Shown piece after piece: positions 3,500 through 9,613 of a DNA stretch of 39,185 nt. Both the position numbers and the translations under genes were made by a program. Each line of letters starts with the position of its first letter. Position 1 is the stretch's first letter. The DNA is taken from UHGV virus genome UHGV-1491546, one strand, 5' to 3'. Source of the DNA: a virus. The notes beneath the pieces are model-generated. The model searched no databases and had not been told where the DNA came from. It saw nothing but the letters and a program-made list of their open reading frames with translations.

Positions 3500-3648
3500 T
3501 TCCTGCGATACCACGGAAGGTTGATAGCTGATTTCATCGCTTTATTTGCTTCAAGCCACATTTTGGAATCACCAATAAATCGGGCTATTACTGCTTTGTT
3601 CTGTGCAGCACGAAGCATCTGGTGATTGATGGCTATTTCATTGCGCAT
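3496..3648 (-). CDS. kil: Kil-like small protein
   Basis: 50-aa ORF (MRNEIAINHQMLRAAQNKAVIARFIGDSKMW...) with GAGG SD; FIGD.KM motif resembles recalled lambda Kil; lies between cIII and erf. Confidence 0.45.
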   Translation of the reverse strand: MRNEIAINHQMLRAAQNKAVIARFIGDSKMWLEANKAMKSAINLPWYRRK

Positions 3649-3764
3649 AATAAGACCTCAACTCTTTTCCATCCGTCACGTAATTTACGGGTGATTCGTT
3701 CAAGTAAAGATTCATTTAGTTGGAAGGCACCCATGCGAGCGCCTCCCGCGATTGCGTAAATCAT
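3633..3764 (-). CDS. cIII: CIII-like FtsH inhibitor
   Basis: 43-aa ORF MIYAIAGGARMGAFQLNESLLERITRKLRDGWKR...; the ESLLERITRKLRDGWKR core matches recalled lambda CIII; AAGGAA SD; below the ORF-track length cutoff. Confidence 0.75.
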   Translation of the reverse strand: MIYAIAGGARMGAFQLNESLLERITRKLRDGWKRVEVLLCAMK

Positions 3765-3788
3765 GGGTGGTTCCTTATGTTGGTTTTA

Positions 3789-4757
3789 TTAGTAGGTTAT
3801 TTTTGTTGCGAATACTTCGCCTTTTACGATGGCTGTTATGATATTTTTAGCAACATCTTCTGATGCGCCAACCTTGATAAGGTCAGCAAGTATTTTGTTA
3901 TTTACTTCTTTCCGGTGAGCTTTATCCTTTGCTCTACGCTCTTCTTCTTCCTTGATTCTTTTTTCTTCTGCTATTCTGGCTTGCTCTTTTGCTTCAGCCT
4001 CGCGCCGGATTCGTTCAGCCACCTCCTGTGCTTTTCGGCGTTCTGCTTCAATTGCCGCCTGCTTTTCTCTTTCAGCTCGTTCTGCTGCCTCTTTTGCTTC
4101 GCGCTGTGCTCGTTGCTCGGCTTCAATACGTTCACGCTCTGCACGTTCCGCTGCGGCCTTAGCTTCTGCTTCTCGCCTTGCTGCTGCTTCAATTTCGGCT
4201 TTTGCCTTTGCTTCGGCTTCTGCTCTGGCTTTCTCTTCAGCTTCTCTTTTTAAGCGTTCTTCATGCTCTCGCTTTTCCCGCTCCGCTTTGAGTCTTGCCT
4301 CTTCTCTTTGGCGGTCAAATTCGCGATCCATCAAAATCGCTATTTCATGGTCAGACTCAATTTGCTTTGCGAGAGCTTCAGCTGCTGCCTTAGCTTCTTC
4401 TTCGGCTTTAATCCGCGCCTGTTCTTCCTCATAATCAGTAAGAGGCTGGCGCGCCTTGGCTTTCAGCTCATCAAGGCGATCACGCACTGTCTTGCGGTTG
4501 GCATCAATTAGCTTTGGAATTTCCTTCAGTTCAGCAACAAGGTCTTTGCCAAGACCATCGAGATATGTTTTCGTCTGCGCAACTTTATACGCCAGAGAAG
4601 CGATCTCATTTCTGCCCTTTGCCGTTGTGATATCAGGCACAAAGGACATAACTTCACGTTCAACCTTTTGGAGAATTTCTTCAATCTGGTCGGCAGACTG
4701 AAATACAGTCATTGCATTTGCTTTTTCAATAACAACTAAATCTGTTACTTCACTCAT
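3789..4757 (-). CDS. highly charged Ala/Glu/Arg/Lys-rich coiled-coil protein
   Basis: ATG 4755-4757 with strong GGAGGA SD (track ORF extends to 4811); about 170 residues of low-complexity AEAEAKAKAE/RERIEAEQR repeats. Confidence 0.6.
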   Translation of the reverse strand: MSEVTDLVVIEKANAMTVFQSADQIEEILQKVEREVMSFVPDITTAKGRNEIASLAYKVAQTKTYLDGLGKDLVAELKEIPKLIDANRKTVRDRLDELKAKARQPLTDYEEEQARIKAEEEAKAAAEALAKQIESDHEIAILMDREFDRQREEARLKAEREKREHEERLKREAEEKARAEAEAKAKAEIEAAARREAEAKAAAERAERERIEAEQRAQREAKEAAERAEREKQAAIEAERRKAQEVAERIRREAEAKEQARIAEEKRIKEEEERRAKDKAHRKEVNNKILADLIKVGASEDVAKNIITAIVKGEVFATKITY

Positions 4758-4769
4758 ATATCCTCCGTC

Positions 4770-4798
4770 AAAAAAATTGCCCTCACATTGGAGGGCAA
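4770..4798 (-). terminator. rho-independent terminator in the pL operon (tL-type)
   Basis: Minus strand reads TTGCCCTC-CAATGT-GAGGGCAA followed by seven T; immediately upstream of the SD of the 3789-4757 gene. Confidence 0.6.
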
Positions 4799-4891
4799 AG
4801 AAGATTTCCAATAATCAGAACAAGTCGGCTCCTGTTTAGTTACGAGCGACATTGCTCCGTGTATTCACTCGTTGGAATGAATACACAGTGC

Positions 4892-5080
4892 TTATTCGTC
4901 ATGCATTTCAGGTAATTCTTCGTATTCGACGCCCCATACGAGTTTACACCAAGTGACTCGCTCATATCTTTTACAAAAATCAGACCACATAACTTGTGTT
5001 CCATCATGGTTTGTTATTACTTCTGTAATATCACCAACACTAACAAAACTGGTATTAGAAGCAGTTATTTTTACTTTCAT
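4892..5080 (-). CDS. hypothetical early-left protein
   Basis: 62-aa ORF; ATG 5078-5080 overlaps the upstream stop (TAATG). Confidence 0.5.
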   Translation of the reverse strand: MKVKITASNTSFVSVGDITEVITNHDGTQVMWSDFCKRYERVTWCKLVWGVEYEELPEMHDE

Positions 5081-5367
5081 TACTTATCCCCAAGAGCTTT
5101 TCTGATTGCTGCAAGACCTTTATTAACAGCTTCATACCATTCTGGATATGTTGTCGTTGTTCTATTTTTGGATTGCTTAAGTAATAACTGAAGTGCTTCG
5201 AGAAGGTCAGGTGCTGCCGCTATCAGTAGCGCATCCTCCCTTTCATTTCTTGTTGCTGCTTCAATGTATGTGTCACCAATCGTCACACCATGGAACGTAG
5301 TCATCATCTCGTTGACGTTTCTAACCGTGTACTTCCATTTACCAGGCGTACCCTTAAACTCTTTCAT
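5080..5367 (-). CDS. hypothetical early-left protein
   Basis: ATG 5365-5367 preceded by AGGTG; track ORF begins at a GTG at 5373; 95 aa. Confidence 0.5.
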   Translation of the reverse strand: MKEFKGTPGKWKYTVRNVNEMMTTFHGVTIGDTYIEAATRNEREDALLIAAAPDLLEALQLLLKQSKNRTTTTYPEWYEAVNKGLAAIRKALGDK

Positions 5368-5375
5368 ATTCACCT

Positions 5376-5415
5376 CTGTTGTTTATGCCCAAAATAAAGG
5401 CCGACTATGCGGCCT
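5376..5415. repeat. direct repeat copy 1 (terminator-like)
   Basis: CTGTTGTTTATGCCCAAAATAAAGGCCGACTATGCGGCCT; near-identical copy at 5919-5956; contains hairpin AGGCCG-ACTATG-CGGCCT. Confidence 0.7.
5390..5415 (-). terminator. rho-independent terminator after gene 5414-5884
   Basis: Minus strand: AGGCCG-CATAGT-CGGCCT hairpin followed by TTTATTTT; the gene stop codon lies in the stem. Confidence 0.5.
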
Positions 5416-5884
5416 AGTAGAATACCCAATTTTCTGTTTCTTGGTTGTGTCCAAAGTTATATTCAATATCTGGTGTTGATGTATCAATATTCTTCATCCC
5501 ATCAACAAGAGTTGATACAACAGCCAAATCTTGTTTGATTCTCATCAAATGGTATTTCTTTCGGCGCAATAAACTTTCAATGGCAAGTTTCTTAGTCGGG
5601 AATGCAAAAGATCTTTCTGCATTTTTTGCTACTTTCTTAATTGCATATCTATTTCTCTTTTGTTTCCATTCCTGTAACCACTGATTTGGTGCTGGTTTAA
5701 AATTAACAATCCAATGCGCAGGAACCAACCATGCATAATGCTCTGTCTGATGAAAAGCTATATATTGAAGTGCGAATATTTTGATTCCATCTTCTTCAAC
5801 TGTCGCTTGGAATCTCCAGAAAACAGGCATTCCATCATGTTCAGTTTCTGATTCAGGAAAAGGTACGCTCCATGATTTTGTCAT
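5414..5884 (-). CDS. hypothetical protein bracketed by direct repeats
   Basis: 156-aa ORF; ATG 5882-5884 with GAGGTG SD; flanked on both sides by the 38-40 bp repeat. Confidence 0.6.
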   Translation of the reverse strand: MTKSWSVPFPESETEHDGMPVFWRFQATVEEDGIKIFALQYIAFHQTEHYAWLVPAHWIVNFKPAPNQWLQEWKQKRNRYAIKKVAKNAERSFAFPTKKLAIESLLRRKKYHLMRIKQDLAVVSTLVDGMKNIDTSTPDIEYNFGHNQETENWVFY

Positions 5885-5918
5885 ATCTCACCTCAAATAA
5901 TTCAGTGCAGTGTTTATT

Positions 5919-5956
5919 CTGTTGTTTATGCCAAAAGAAGGCCGACTATGCGGCCT
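5919..5956. repeat. direct repeat copy 2 (terminator-like)
   Basis: CTGTTGTTTATGCCAAAAGAAGGCCGACTATGCGGCCT; differs from copy 1 by one substitution and two deleted bases; same hairpin. Confidence 0.7.
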
Positions 5957-6569
5957 CGGAAGGAAGTCCAATCATCTTATTCAAATCTTCTACCCGTAAA
6001 GCAGGAAGTGCTGTACTTGCTTTATCTGCTTCTTTTGGTAGCAATTCTTTGCTTTCAGGCCAAACCTCAATAAGTCGCTTAACTGTTGTGACTGAGTTCA
6101 AAGCAGCCCATACATTTGATTCGATATCCTTTTTCTTGGCTTCAAGTTTTTGTTGCAATGCGCAGATTTCATCAAACCTTTTTGTTATTTCGTGTTCTGC
6201 GCTAAACATGCATTTATCTTTGTTCGGAGTAGGGAGCAATATATCTTCGCCGTTGCCGTCTTCCCCATATGAAAGCCATCCAACCCTTCTGCCAGATACA
6301 GTCAGATAAATTGAAGTAGAACGAACATCGTATGAGTAAAATGAACATCCCATCTTTCCAAGTTCTTCACTTATAGCTACCAACTTGGATGATAACTGAT
6401 CCACTTCCTCAGTTTTCTTTTTACCGCCAAACGCAATAACTCTGGCGTCAAGTGCAAGCTGGTTCTTTAACTTTGTTACTTCTTCAAGTTCAGTGAAAAC
6501 CCCAGACTTAATTAAAGCGTTACGAGCGATTTCCTCTTTCATTCTCGTAGTTAAGCGGATTGATGACAT
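5946..6569 (-). CDS. hypothetical early-left protein
   Basis: ATG 6567-6569 with GAGGA SD (track ORF extends to 6638); 207 aa; stop codon lies in the loop of repeat copy 2. Confidence 0.6.
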   Translation of the reverse strand: MSSIRLTTRMKEEIARNALIKSGVFTELEEVTKLKNQLALDARVIAFGGKKKTEEVDQLSSKLVAISEELGKMGCSFYSYDVRSTSIYLTVSGRRVGWLSYGEDGNGEDILLPTPNKDKCMFSAEHEITKRFDEICALQQKLEAKKKDIESNVWAALNSVTTVKRLIEVWPESKELLPKEADKASTALPALRVEDLNKMIGLPSEAA

Positions 6570-6634
6570 ATTAATTCCTCTCAAATAAGTGGTTTGCTGC
6601 CAAAACAATGAACCATCCGGAAATTCCAGATAGT

Positions 6635-6859
6635 TCATAATTCACTCTTCAATACTTCCAACTTACTAATCGCCGATAGATATCCGCGCTGATAGGGCAT
6701 CATCATTCCTTCGAGCTTGCCACTTCTTAACTCCTCCCTGAGCAATTGTATTGCTTGATCAATAACCTCTGCCTTAGCGTCCTTTATGGCTTGCTTGCGG
6801 GGCTTTGCTTTCTGCTTTGGCAGATTTCTCAAGCATGATGGAATGTATGTCTGATTCAT
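6635..6859 (-). CDS. small hypothetical protein immediately downstream of N
   Basis: ATG 6857-6859 with GAGG SD inside the N 3-prime end; 74 aa. Confidence 0.5.
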   Translation of the reverse strand: MNQTYIPSCLRNLPKQKAKPRKQAIKDAKAEVIDQAIQLLREELRSGKLEGMMMPYQRGYLSAISKLEVLKSEL

Positions 6860-6862
6860 CAC

Positions 6863-7135
6863 TTACCTCGCCGTCAGTTGTTTTGATTTCCGGTAGCCTG
6901 CCGCGTAAAGAGCTACGTTTGGCAGGCAAATACTTCCACTGCATTCATCTGCCTTCTTGCAGCGAAGGCTTCCGAGTGAAGCTGCTTTGTCTGCTCTGAC
7001 GCAACCAGAGAGCTTTAGCGCAATTTTTCGCGCCAGTCGCTGCTCTTGCATTGCCTGTTCACGTTGAGCCTGTCTGCGTGCTCTGCGGCGATTTCTGGCG
7101 TTATCGTCAGCCAGATATGTAATGACTACTGTCAT
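6863..7135 (-). CDS. N: N-type transcription antiterminator (P22 gene 24-like)
   Basis: From ATG 7133-7135 (GGAGG SD): MTVVITYLADDNARNRRRARRQAQ... with an N-terminal arginine-rich motif and C-terminus LPNVALYAAGYRKSKQLTAR close to recalled P22 gp24; track ORF extends to 7207. Confidence 0.8.
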   Translation of the reverse strand: MTVVITYLADDNARNRRRARRQAQREQAMQEQRLARKIALKLSGCVRADKAASLGSLRCKKADECSGSICLPNVALYAAGYRKSKQLTAR

Positions 7136-7175
7136 GTTGACCTCCGGGTAGGTGCACATCCTTGTGTGTCGATGA

Positions 7176-7295
7176 TTATTTGTTTTTGCGTTCCCACATC
7201 CAGTCATCTACTTCAGACCAGATAGTGAAACCGAAGCCGATGGCGAATGTGGTAACTAAACCACCGAGAATTGGGTTGGTCATGATGTCTAACAT
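7176..7295 (-). CDS. small hydrophobic peptide (39 aa), possible type I toxin-like membrane peptide
   Basis: ATG 7293-7295 preceded by GAGGAA; MLDIMTNPILGGLVTTFAIGFGFTIWSEVDDWMWERKNK; below the ORF-track cutoff; overlaps the track N extension in another frame. Confidence 0.4.
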   Translation of the reverse strand: MLDIMTNPILGGLVTTFAIGFGFTIWSEVDDWMWERKNK

Positions 7296-7320
7296 TTTCT
7301 GTTCCTCAGATGATTAGCTT

Positions 7321-7547
7321 TGGTGGTGTGGTGGCTGGTAGTCTAGCTCCAGCTTGTTGAGTCTCATTCGGAGGGGTATAACCGGCACCCCAGCGATTTT
7401 TCCATGCGACAACGTGCGCGTTATGGCGGCCTTATCGCCCGCGGCTCCCCATCTCGTCCACGCTATTGCTAGCGTTGGGAGCGCTTCACCGCTCAACAGT
7501 AGGTAAGCACTTGCCAGTGACTAGCTGGCTTCACCACACCCCAAAGC
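7321..7547. other. GC-rich ORF-free element bounded by imperfect inverted repeats (structured RNA leader or MITE-like insert)
   Basis: About 58 percent GC by eye against a more AT-rich background; only TTG/GTG ORFs without SD; 7321-7342 and 7520-7547 are inverted complements (GGTGTGGTG / CACCACACC). Confidence 0.4.
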
Positions 7548-7561
7548 CAACTACTCTTTGG

Positions 7562-7604
7562 TTCCCGCATTTCGGCGGGACAATCCCATCAATGTTAAAG
7601 AGCC
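7562..7604 (-). promoter_or_regulatory. nutL (boxA and boxB)
   Basis: Minus strand: boxA GGCTCTTTA (plus 7596-7604), 14 nt, then boxB GTCCCGCCGAAATGCGGGAA, 19 of 20 identical to the nutR boxB at 9258-9277. Confidence 0.7.
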
Positions 7605-7649
7605 TGCCAATCTGTTCCGTTTGGCTACCAGCGTCCTGCTGATGGCTAA

Positions 7650-7736
7650 AGAATACTGTAGGTATTTTATTGTGTAAATACCCAAGGTATTTATTTTTGG
7701 TGAAATAATGATAAGCAAATGAATACAAAGGATATT
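7650..7736 (-). promoter_or_regulatory. OL operators and pL promoter
   Basis: Three 15-bp sites AATAC-N5-GTATT (third ATATT) at 7652-7666, 7677-7691 and 7722-7736; minus-strand -35 TTTACA (7673-7678) and -10 TATTCT (7650-7655) with 17-bp spacer. Confidence 0.6.
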
Positions 7737-7822
7737 TATTTTTTCGGTGTCTGCTTGTTCAGTGCTTTTTATGCGGGATATGTGAAGTGGATCCCGATAG
7801 CTATTGCTGCCGGGATTATGGG

Positions 7823-8191
7823 TTAGTCAGCGAAGGTTAAGACGAGAATTACCTTAATGATGTCTGCTACAACAGACACGGCCATAGATAAACCAAAGAC
7901 AATCCAAGCCATAGAGATGTCTTCACTACCATCGTATAGAGTTCCGTAATCACTGGTGTAAGGCGTAAATGTCGCGCCTTGATACAATAGGTATAAGCTT
8001 GATCCATAGAGGATAAATGCAGATATCCCTTGTATTGCCATGATCGCCAGAATCATGAAACGAGCTGATCTATGCGCCCAAGCCTGGCTTATTTTTTCTG
8101 ATAGAGATTTCGCAATAAAAGCATGCGCTAAGCCGTAAATTGTTGAGATTGCCAACATCCCCAAAAAGCTTGCTATAGCGGTTACAACCAT
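7823..8191 (-). CDS. multi-pass membrane protein downstream of cI (rex/sie-slot gene)
   Basis: ATG 8189-8191, 18 nt after the cI stop (track ORF starts at TTG 8212); 122 aa with about four hydrophobic helices; likely co-transcribed with cI. Confidence 0.6.
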   Translation of the reverse strand: MVVTAIASFLGMLAISTIYGLAHAFIAKSLSEKISQAWAHRSARFMILAIMAIQGISAFILYGSSLYLLYQGATFTPYTSDYGTLYDGSEDISMAWIVFGLSMAVSVVADIIKVILVLTFAD

Positions 8192-8208
8192 AATCGCCCC
8201 TTGCGTGA

Positions 8209-8925
8209 TCAAACCAGCCTTAGTTTTGTCTCAATTGCAACGCCTATAATCTTGCAGTTTCCATTGATTGGCACGAGAGGCCATGCAGGATTAAGTCCCT
8301 TGAGGTATTTATTTCCGCCGTCGATTATCAGCTTCTTGAATGTTGCTTCGTTAGAGTCAGAAAGTTTTGCTATGACCAAGCTGCCGTTGATCGCCTCCCT
8401 TCCGGTATCGAAAAGAACGAATGTTCCCTCTGGAATGCTTAACCCAACCGGTGCCGTCATTGAATCACCTTCCACTTTAAGCCAAAACGCATTACCTTGA
8501 ATATGCGCGTCAGACTCAAGCCAAACATCTATGTCTTTAATGGTGTATGGTTCGCATGCTTCACACCACGAGCCAGCCTGGATACTGCTTAACACCGGAT
8601 ACCTCTTTCCTGCTCTGTATTCCCCTGCATACCTTACGTTGGCATCGCTCTTAAGGCTTTCTGCCTGTTCTGCAACCTTGGCAGCAATTGACTGGCTAAA
8701 ATCAGCAATTGAGACTTGCAACAATCGTGCAAAACCAGATGCAACCTCAACGTTTAGCGCATTTCTGCCATTAAGATAATGCCCTACCGCTCCTTGGGTG
8801 ATACCCAGTTCATCAGCGATTGAGTATTGGGTTATTCCCAATTCTTTCTTTTTTGACTCATACAAAGCCTTAAGCCGCTTAGCGTCTTCGAGCTGTTCTG
8901 TCGTCAGTGATTTTTTATTTTCCAT
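8209..8925 (-). CDS. cI: CI-type prophage repressor (HTH domain plus S24 LexA-like peptidase domain)
   Basis: 238 aa; N-terminal helix-turn-helix (ITQYSIADELGITQGAVGHYLNG) and C-terminal autocleavage-type domain (VEGDSMTAP...); divergent from cro across OR. Confidence 0.9.
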   Translation of the reverse strand: MENKKSLTTEQLEDAKRLKALYESKKKELGITQYSIADELGITQGAVGHYLNGRNALNVEVASGFARLLQVSIADFSQSIAAKVAEQAESLKSDANVRYAGEYRAGKRYPVLSSIQAGSWCEACEPYTIKDIDVWLESDAHIQGNAFWLKVEGDSMTAPVGLSIPEGTFVLFDTGREAINGSLVIAKLSDSNEATFKKLIIDGGNKYLKGLNPAWPLVPINGNCKIIGVAIETKLRLV

Positions 8926-9031
8926 AGCTTAATTCTAATAGCTAAGGTACTTAAACTAAAAATACCCTGAGTATTGATTGCCTTGAATACCTGTAGTATT
9001 CTTTGTTCATGGTTAATAACGGAGAGTGCAT
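8926..9031. promoter_or_regulatory. OR operators with divergent pR and pRM
   Basis: Sites AATAC-N5-GTATT at 8961-8975 and 8986-9000 plus a degenerate site at 8937-8951, centres 24-25 bp apart; pR -35 TTGATT (8974-8979) and -10 TATTCT (8997-9002). Confidence 0.65.
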
Positions 9032-9226
9032 ATGATTCGAATGACACTTGCCGATTACGCCAAAATCCATGGACAGGCTAAAGCAGCCAGTGACTTTGGT
9101 GTAATCCAGTGCGCTATCAGCAAGGCCATTCTGGCAGGCCGTAACATCATGGTTACGGTAAAGCCTGATGGCAGTGTGATTGGAGAGGAAGTTCGTCCTT
9201 TCCCAAGCAACAAGAAAAACAAATAG
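9032..9226 (+). CDS. cro: Cro repressor
   Basis: [37 protein letters not shown]...PFPSNKK closely resembles recalled lambda Cro; GGAGAG SD before ATG 9032; track ORF starts at GTG 9026. Confidence 0.85.
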
Positions 9227-9232
9227 TAACAC

Positions 9233-9277
9233 CGCTCTTTAACAGTCATGGTCCTCATTCCCGCCGAAATGCGGGAA
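9233..9277 (+). promoter_or_regulatory. nutR (boxA and boxB)
   Basis: boxA CGCTCTTTA at 9233-9241; boxB hairpin TTCCCGC-CGAAAT-GCGGGAA at 9258-9277. Confidence 0.7.
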
Positions 9278-9283
9278 TACAAC

Positions 9284-9314
9284 GCGCATAAGTTGATGCG
9301 CATAACTTCTTATT
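9284..9314 (+). terminator. tR1-like terminator between nutR and cII
   Basis: Hairpin GCGCAT-AAGTTG-ATGCGC followed by a T-rich tract ATAACTTCTTATT. Confidence 0.4.
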
Positions 9315-9334
9315 AGTTAAGGAAATACTTACAT

Positions 9335-9613
9335 ATGCAACTTACAAGTACTCGCAAGAAAGCGAATGCAATTACAAGCAACATCCTGAATCGAATTGCT
9401 GTACGTGGTCAGCGAAAGGTTGCCGACGCGTTAGGGATTAATGAATCGCAAATTTCGCGATGGAAAGACAGCTTCATCCCAAAAATGGGAATGCTTCTGG
9501 CTGTTCTTGAATGGGGTGTTGAAGACGAGGAGTTGGCGGAACTGGCTAAGAAAGTAGCCAGAATGCTGACAAAAGAAAAAGCCCCGAAGAACGGCGAATT
9601 CTTCGAGGCCTGA
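9335..9613 (+). CDS. cII: CII transcriptional activator
   Basis: 92 aa; motif SQISRWK...PKMGMLLAVLEWGV matches recalled lambda CII. Confidence 0.85.
   Translation: MQLTSTRKKANAITSNILNRIAVRGQRKVADALGINESQISRWKDSFIPKMGMLLAVLEWGVEDEELAELAKKVARMLTKEKAPKNGEFFEA
9571..9608 (-). terminator. minus-strand terminator inside the cII 3-prime end (OOP-like antisense RNA terminator)
   Basis: Minus strand: CCTCGAAGAA-TTCGCCG-TTCTTCGGGG hairpin followed by CTTTTTCTTTT; position matches lambda tO for OOP RNA. Confidence 0.45.

Follow-up and report, generated by a model that had tools for sequence, protein, structure and literature searches.

Five early-left genes between N and the PreS/tL2a element of an HK620-like coliphage: a probable set of exchangeable accessory cassettes

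Introduction

What do lambdoid phages gain from the small genes that follow the antiterminator gene N in the early-left operon, and do such genes serve to counteract host defenses? The question is raised by the virus genome UHGV-1491546, of which a stretch of 39,185 nucleotides (nt) was analyzed (hereafter the window). Here, the interval from N to a terminator at 4777-4798 contains five minus-strand genes encoding proteins of 74, 207, 156, 95 and 62 amino acids (aa). In lambda, the genes of the corresponding interval are early and dispensable, and the terminators between them can be passed only with N antitermination. A preliminary description of the window had placed the five genes in the slot known for ral, sieB and gene 17, had recognized no protein family among them and had proposed them as candidates for anti-restriction or anti-defense functions.

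The analysis described here supports the placement and leads to a more ordinary reading of the content. The block is not a new kind of system; it is a typical mosaic accessory region composed of known families of hypothetical proteins. We consider it highly probable that it represents a compound set of exchangeable accessory cassettes, made up of dispensable early genes, in the N-to-PreS/tL2a interval of the pL operon of a coliphage of the HK620-like/P22-like type.

The block occupies the ral slot of the pL operon

The window DNA is most similar to P22-like and HK620-like coliphages, namely HZ41, IME10, mEpX2, HK633 and HK620. The window probably represents an entire viral contig, since the longest recorded contig with a 230-aa ORF of the block (see below) measures exactly 39,185 nt. 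HK620 (AF335538, Lederbergvirus), the closest well-annotated relative, shares the N type, pL/nutL, cI and PreS/tL2A. The interval 7529-7830 is 97.7% identical to HK620 7719-8020, which is annotated with tIMM, nutL, pL and OL1-3, and a scan placed a promoter-like site at 7678-7650. pL is the promoter predicted to drive the five-gene block, and both position and strand agree with the earlier assignment of these genes to the early-left operon downstream of N. A consensus scan, which can miss weak or non-sigma-70 promoters, detected no sigma-70-like promoter on the coding strand within 4892-6859.

The downstream border is formed by an element shared with lambda: over 121 nt, window 4765-4895 has 98.3% identity with lambda 33925-34045, which sits between ea10 and ral, and the 93 nt that precede the terminator match lambda LPR1/PreS at 98%. 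Lambda LPR1/PreS is an Hfq-dependent small RNA (sRNA) encoded between ea10 and ral, whose 3' end is tL2a and which up-regulates the host gene dnaN (bioRxiv 10.1101/2024.10.31.621285). Its sequence identity, its 3' GC hairpin followed by poly-U and its position in the pL operon identify the element at 4777-4891 as a putative LPR1/PreS homolog, an sRNA known in this phage from its sequence, which follows orf62 here and ral in lambda and which flanks the block instead of being one of its five genes. The element occurs in 325 phage records, and its RNA fold has a z-score of -5.2; no RNA family matched in a Rfam 15 scan of 3500-9500, and PreS is apparently absent from that collection. Because the element matches the lambda LPR1/PreS interval, the terminator at 4777-4798 is identified as tL2a. 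It had previously been given as 4770-4798; the terminator itself is present, with slightly narrower limits.

Because PreS/tL2a forms the downstream boundary, the block corresponds to the lambda ral slot, extending from N to PreS. The two regions agree in their position within the pL operon, with N upstream and PreS/tL2a downstream, but differ in their content: lambda carries ral and none of the five proteins, and no homolog of any of them was found in lambda 32800-35800.

Cassettes and conserved linkers

Four terminator-like hairpins are located on the coding strand, past orf74, past the 207-aa gene (a member of the Nmad5 family, as discussed below), past orf156 and at tL2a. They separate the cassettes N-orf74, Nmad5, orf156 and orf95-orf62 (Table 1). 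The hairpin past orf74 (dG -21 kcal/mol, z -5.45 in RNA folding) is kept behind orf74 or its variant JM3_53 whatever follows, be it Nmad5, Ral or JM3_52. The next hairpin overlaps the Nmad5 stop codon (dG -11.6 kcal/mol) and belongs to a terminator-plus-linker repeat whose core was found at the 3' end of Nmad5 in all ten IMG/VR loci inspected for its position, and exactly once in 78 of 85 sequences scanned. Of the sequences examined, this window alone showed the second copy, past orf156. The two GGCCGCATAGTCGGCC hairpins with their 20-nt tails make up a direct repeat of 41 nt on either side of orf156 (repeat families D1/D2).

The mosaic nature of the slot becomes apparent from 80 IMG/VR loci carrying Nmad5, whose arrangements were scored with a panel of marker genes. 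Every one of them has Nmad5 on the same strand, with cI/N on one side and cIII/kil/abc2 on the other, and 61 different marker-gene arrangements were counted. Its neighbors in the slot include Ral (9 loci), P22 gene 17 (5), Ea10/DUF2528 (13) and orf156 (8) as well as orf95-family genes and orf62. Together with the sieB-like hkaP of HK620, this bears out the earlier assignment of the block to the slot of ral, sieB and gene 17. In HK620, hkaQ and the opposite-strand hkaP stand in place of orf74, Nmad5, orf156, orf95 and orf62. Since the five genes are absent in lambda and replaced by hkaQ and hkaP in HK620, they are likely to be dispensable.

The spacing between Nmad5 and PreS is equally informative. 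PreS starts 43 nt past Nmad5 in 52 of 67 loci, while the remaining 15 carry inserts of 364-547 nt that consist either of orf156 or of an orf95-family gene plus orf62. The usual layout is Nmad5 with PreS directly behind it, and in this phage both insert types, orf156 and orf95-orf62, are stacked at that junction. No phage or Escherichia coli record contained at least 80% of a 2.6-kb block query, the best reaching 69%. Recombination at the conserved linkers, that is the orf74 hairpin, the Nmad5 terminator with its linker and the PreS element, would shuffle the cassettes, and the region as a whole reads as classical lambdoid mosaicism in an ordinary accessory region. The region and all five families are already represented in databases; the cassette stacking is new but ordinary. 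By analogy to lambda, orf74 would be an immediate-early product like N and be made along with it, whereas Nmad5, orf156 and orf95-orf62 would be made only once N-modified RNA polymerase passes the terminators.

Directly past tL2a lies a gene for a 322-aa charged coiled-coil "TolA-like" protein (3789-4757, minus strand; phrog_1376, corresponding to mEp213 gp44). It was found in only 14 of the 80 related loci, which makes it another optional cassette, and in lambda its position is held by ea10.

Table 1. Coordinates of the block, its borders and its terminator-like hairpins in the window, listed in the direction of transcription.
Feature	Coordinates	Strand	Remarks
nutL; pL with operators	nutL ~7563-7604; pL and operators ~7643-7678	-	placed by homology to the HK620 annotation
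Antiterminator N, 90 aa, HK620 type	6863-7135	-	Pfam N_peptide, E 2e-15; 96.7% identical to HK620 N
orf74	6635-6859	-	small basic protein, isoelectric point (pI) 9.7; upstream of the first terminator
Hairpin in tL1 position	6600-6640 (stem 6608-6638)	-	14-bp stem followed by UGUUUUGG
Nmad5-family gene, 207 aa	5946-6569	-	
Terminator-like hairpin GGCCGCATAGTCGGCC with U-tract and 20-nt linker	5918-5957 (hairpin ~5940-5957)	-	repeat copy 1
orf156	5414-5884	-	basic alpha/beta protein, pI 9.05, of an unannotated phage family
Terminator-plus-linker repeat past orf156	5375-5416 (hairpin 5398-5415)	-	repeat copy 2; repeat search and terminator scan
orf95	5080-5367	-	ATG start; C-terminal AAPDLLEAL helical domain
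orf62	4892-5080	-	small acidic protein, pI 4.8
LPR1/PreS sRNA homolog (putative), ending in tL2a (4777-4798)	4777-4891	-	downstream boundary of the block

Gene calls, conservation and families

The five open reading frames (ORFs) were recovered where the preliminary description had placed them, all on the minus strand, and they are real, conserved genes and not chance ORFs. This follows from full-length PHROG matches, exact copies on many contigs, low ratios of nonsynonymous to synonymous polymorphism (pN/pS) and, in the case of orf95, a full-length relative in phage APC_JM3.2 (gp50, 61% identical). All five proteins match PHROG families over their full length with E-values from 4e-27 to 5e-112, among them orf74 (phrog_5305, E 5e-38), orf156 (phrog_1636, E 5e-112), orf95 (phrog_1273, E 4e-27) and orf62 (phrog_10407, E 1.5e-45). 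The exact sequences of these four occur on 353 to more than 1000 enterobacterial prophage contigs each, with orf74 exceeding 1000; that of the 207-aa protein occurs on 3 contigs, and its 90%-identity cluster has 2436 members. Among close relatives, pN/pS amounts to 0.04 for orf74, 0.12 for orf156, 0.16 for orf62 (a value based on 5 changes only) and 0.42 for Nmad5, while orf95 had no close variants among the related loci compared. Where it can be measured, the sequence variation thus suggests purifying selection. None of the five resembles housekeeping or structural proteins, and all are conserved in related phages.

Concerning the 207-aa gene, the start chosen earlier proved to be the right one. 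A mechanically called alternative ORF of 230 aa starts at 6638 and adds 23 residues; it was rejected, as these residues read through the 14-bp hairpin at 6608-6638. The Pfam match begins at residue 27 of the longer ORF, and 207 aa is the length mostly used for this gene in NCBI annotation. orf95 would measure 97 aa if the GTG at 5373 were taken as its start. Good ribosome-binding sites had been described for the block, and this holds for orf95, orf156, the 207-aa gene and orf74, which have Shine-Dalgarno sites of the GAGGT/GAGAGGA type. The start of orf62 instead overlaps the orf95 stop codon (TAATG), and its translation is predicted to be coupled to that of orf95. In a similar manner, the orf74 ATG follows the N stop codon at a distance of 3 nt (TAA-GTG-ATG), so that orf74 translation may be coupled to N.

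The GC content of the five genes ranges from 0.35 to 0.44, compared to 0.47 for the window. Their products have pI values between 4.8 and 9.7 and net charges of +6 (orf74), -1 (Nmad5), +3 (orf156), +2 (orf95) and -5 (orf62). All but Nmad5 are labeled hypothetical in every source, and the PHROG families of these four carry no assigned function. The earlier statement that no family could be recognized was wrong for the 207-aa protein, which matches Pfam Nmad5 (PF18757) over profile positions 1-206 of 206 with 243.3 bits against a cut-off of 27 bits (E 3e-72) and bears the name Nmad5 in RefSeq. It contains the conserved motifs TxKRLIxxWPE and LPAL-V-DLN-IGLP and is a genuine member of the family by its full-length match, predicted fold and motifs; the "modification" part of the label is unsupported in this phage.

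orf95 and orf62 form a recurrent pair. An orf95-type gene (JM3_50 or orf95) is followed by orf62 or UDP0149 in 10 of 11 IMG/VR loci, orf62 follows an orf95-family gene in five of the six related IMG/VR loci that carry it, and in mEp213 a small coupled gene, gp48, lies behind the orf95-family gene. orf62 is not similar to UDP0150. orf95 itself is chimeric, with an exchange point inside the gene: residues 1-43 match mEp213 gp49, Bas106 and Dewey at 100% identity, residues 64-95 match APC_JM3.2 gp50 at 90%, and the C-terminal half is 49% identical to UDP0123 from the screen of Silas et al. described below. The AAPDLLEAL motif was found only in orf95 and not in the Ead/Ea22-like proteins of the window.

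In mEp213 (NC_019720, 30879-32636), two N genes occur in tandem, one of the HK244 and one of the HK620 type. The orf95-type cassette gp50-gp48 lies between them, and the arrangement suggests that an N module was duplicated or stacked.

An anti-defense role for the block?

That one or more of the five genes encode a dedicated early inhibitor of restriction or of another host defense, as had been proposed, is possible, though in our judgment doubtful; what speaks for it is association, and direct support was found for none of the five. The association begins with the slot, which holds Ral or P22 gene 17 in part of the loci compared above, and extends to the rapid turnover and low GC content of the region. 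It is also seen in the accessory region studied by Silas et al. (bioRxiv 10.1101/2023.04.06.535777), which from its position appears to be the same locus. There, orf184 occurs together with ral and triggers the gop-beta-cII system. orf184 corresponds to mEp213 gp45 and lies between orf74 (mEp213 gp46, directly upstream) and the coiled-coil gene, that is where four of the genes considered here sit in the window.

A further link comes from Nmad5 in Dhillonviruses, where a K216E/K296E change in the protein leads to escape from the Tmn defense (PMC11846954). A relative in this group, the 254-aa Nmad5 homolog of Oekolampad (MZ501095, 5004-5768), is encoded between spanin and capsid-module genes. 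Its K216 lies in the motif TDKKLIKAWPE and aligns with R165 of the 207-aa protein, and this residue of the TxKKLIxxWPE motif is probably the site of the published escape mutation. Nmad5 can thus alter the outcome of a defense. [quoted passage not shown] Because of the unchanged sensitivity of the deletion mutant, wild-type Dhillonvirus Nmad5 is considered neither a Tmn inhibitor nor the sole Tmn trigger.

The searches aimed at known functions likewise argue against an anti-defense inhibitor. Nmad5 gave the only Pfam match among the five proteins; matches to NCBIfam remained at chance level for all of them, as did those to PADLOC-DB 2.0 (E ~0.01), a library that holds defense systems and not anti-defense proteins. 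Sequence searches of solved structures with orf156, Nmad5 and orf95 returned nothing below E 0.01. None of the five matched Ral, either by the Pfam family PF11058 or by BLASTP, and none had a BLASTP match to P22 gene 17 or orf184. A DNA mimic of the Ocr/ArdA type was considered and rejected, as only orf62 is mildly acidic and the net charge is -5 at most, compared to -17 for gene 17 and orf184. Moreover, UDP0123 and UDP0149 were among the 200 accessory genes synthesized for the screen of Silas et al. and do not figure among the genes with a reported phenotype (bioRxiv 10.1101/2023.04.06.535777). UDP0149, an alternative partner of orf95-family genes, originates in the equivalent slot of APC_JM3.2, a phage whose neighboring pL-operon region is the source of UDP0115. 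Peptides of the five proteins were not found in the supplement of that study, and the follow-up paper (PMC12373910) does not mention the relevant ORFs.

Replication, recombination and the Nmad5 label

The genomic context of distant Nmad5 and orf156 relatives, which would point to replication or recombination, offers at least an equally good reading. Relatives of Nmad5 were found in 384 phage records. The gene of Yuavirus/M6-like Pseudomonas phages lies within a thymidine-hypermodification cluster, with aGPT-Pplase1, a kinase and a thymidylate-synthase-like gene as neighbors; in the N4-like phage Pylas it is located between the thymidylate synthase gene and a nuclease plus primase, in eiAU it follows a helicase-primase, and in a Vibrio phage it lies near RecE and a replication initiator. 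In Dhillonviruses it is a lone opposite-strand gene inside the structural module.

Structure prediction, which had been suggested as a check, was informative for one of the two larger proteins. The AlphaFold2 (AF2) model of Nmad5, built with 36 homologs, is confident, with a predicted local distance difference test (pLDDT) score of 84.8. Three helices at the N-terminus are followed by a small beta element, a long helix (residues 127-158) and two short helices, and the C-terminal tail has low model confidence and yet is invariant in sequence. Foldseek retrieved 12 matches from BFVD at E <=1e-3, several of them named Nmad5, with a top TM-score of 0.75; the predicted fold is a helical coiled coil, the same as in other viral Nmad5 proteins. 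The fold search with this model returned no relative of solved structure and no enzyme-like match. The model obtained for orf156 was poor (see below).

The orf156 protein, on the other hand, is informative by its relatives. Close ones, 55-99% identical, are confined to Enterobacterales, and a profile search of 1.8 billion representatives yielded 87 family members, mostly of 130-155 aa. No Pfam family was detected in the representatives scanned, and they are without a name in every source. The core shared by the family is a beta meander that closes with HET; behind it come K(K/R)(V/I)xKxxxRFAF and a long basic helix. Three distant relatives come from the early DNA-metabolism modules of unrelated phages with genomes near 40 kb. 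The first is preceded by an AAA_24 ATPase and a DUF3799 protein, the second by a primase-polymerase and a beta-clamp, and the third has an integrase, SSB and a RecA-dependent nuclease in its vicinity. These sequence relationships place orf156 in a larger family of early phage proteins that lacks annotation.

As a best guess, we regard Nmad5 and orf156 as binding proteins without enzymatic activity; for Nmad5, the guess is made because the confident helical model shows no enzyme-like match. Their targets could be replication or recombination intermediates of phage DNA, or host proteins that watch over them, because relatives of Nmad5 adjoin polymerase, primase, thymidylate-synthase-like, RecE or nuclease genes in unrelated phages and those of orf156 lie in the DNA-metabolism modules named above. 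Such proteins would act at the interface with host defenses, yet not as classical inhibitors. A more specific form of this idea, which we regard as unlikely in its entirety, holds that Nmad5 is a non-modifying coiled-coil early protein whose C-terminal motifs (TxKRLIxxWPESKELLP ... LPAL-V-DLNK-IGLP) dock on a host or phage replication or surveillance factor, an interaction that host defenses such as the KAP-NTPase Tmn would monitor or be defeated by, while orf156 would represent a new widespread early DNA-binding family tied to replication and recombination modules.

The name of the family suggests a different role, namely that Nmad5 is a component of a DNA base-modification pathway serving, for instance, restriction evasion. 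Apart from the naming in Pfam and NCBI, this is backed by the hypermodification cluster of the Yuavirus/M6-like phages and by the position of the gene behind thymidylate synthase in Pylas, and an association with modification enzymes was seen only in the former and partly in the latter. In the window, by contrast, Nmad5 is an orphan in the pL accessory slot. A Pfam scan of the 29 non-structural window ORFs of at least 70 aa revealed no recognizable DNA-modification enzyme, and among the 25 of 27 families viewed there was no methyltransferase, glycosyltransferase, aGPT-Pplase, kinase or hydroxymethylase. Furthermore, the invariant Nmad5 residues, mostly hydrophobic, Gly or Pro, form no obvious catalytic set, and the solitary Dhillonvirus gene has no such context either. 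A modification function is hence improbable, and lambdoid phages are probably not well described by the misleading name "Nmad5, nucleotide modification protein".

Least probable by our estimate, and indeed very unlikely, are morons expressed from the prophage for superinfection exclusion or defense in the manner of sieB or rex: sieB-type genes do occupy the slot in HK620 and some E. coli prophages, a terminator-like hairpin closes each cassette and the GC content is atypical, but the consensus scan found no sigma-70-like promoter on the coding strand within the block, all five genes share the direction of pL, which is shut off by repressor in the lysogen, the sieB-like hkaP of HK620 lies on the opposite strand, PADLOC gave no matches and sequence inspection shows no membrane protein among the five.

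The account preferred here, exchangeable cassettes of dispensable early genes with Nmad5 and orf156 as putative binding proteins, must itself be taken with caution in several respects. The terminators are consensus and folding predictions only, and the predicted folds of the two GGCCG hairpins do not surpass those of shuffled sequence (z -1.3 and -1.5). The AF2 model of orf156 is weak (pLDDT 62.8) and too poor to interpret, so that the label of a binding protein is based on charge and genomic context, and gene neighborhood in distant phages is weak functional evidence for this phage. The Dhillonvirus relative is only 27% identical overall (alignment A3) and about 34% over the C-terminal 100 residues, and the mapping of K216 to R165 assumes that phage SMA8 shares the Oekolampad numbering.

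If any of the genes were a counter-defense factor or a trigger of defense, this would matter for the thousands of E. coli, Shigella and Salmonella prophages with identical copies, Stx-converting phages among them. Independent of function, a slot with defined borders (N and PreS) and linkers is a natural landing pad for cassette-swap experiments.

Further features of the early-left region

Three additional features were observed between cI and N. The first is a GC-rich leader of 232 nt (7314-7545, minus strand) between nutL and N, which is 100% identical in 19 phages, including Sf6, Sf101, mEp213, mEp043, HK633, HK446 and HK544, and absent from HK620. It matched no Rfam family, and its predicted fold has a long-range closing stem formed by GGGGUGUGGUG...CACCACACCACC (minimum free energy -95 kcal/mol, z -3.1). 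Between this leader and N lies a hydrophobic ORF of 39 aa, MLDIMTNPILGGLVTTFAIGFGFTIWSEVDDWMWERKNK, at 7176-7295 (minus strand), which is preceded by a GAGGA Shine-Dalgarno site and may encode a small membrane peptide or have arisen by chance. The third feature is a gene for a multi-pass membrane protein of 122/129 aa (7823-8212, minus strand; phrog_6534), the counterpart of HK620 hkaS. It is located between cI and pL, a position of the rexAB/BstA type, and is a candidate for an exclusion or defense gene expressed in the lysogen.

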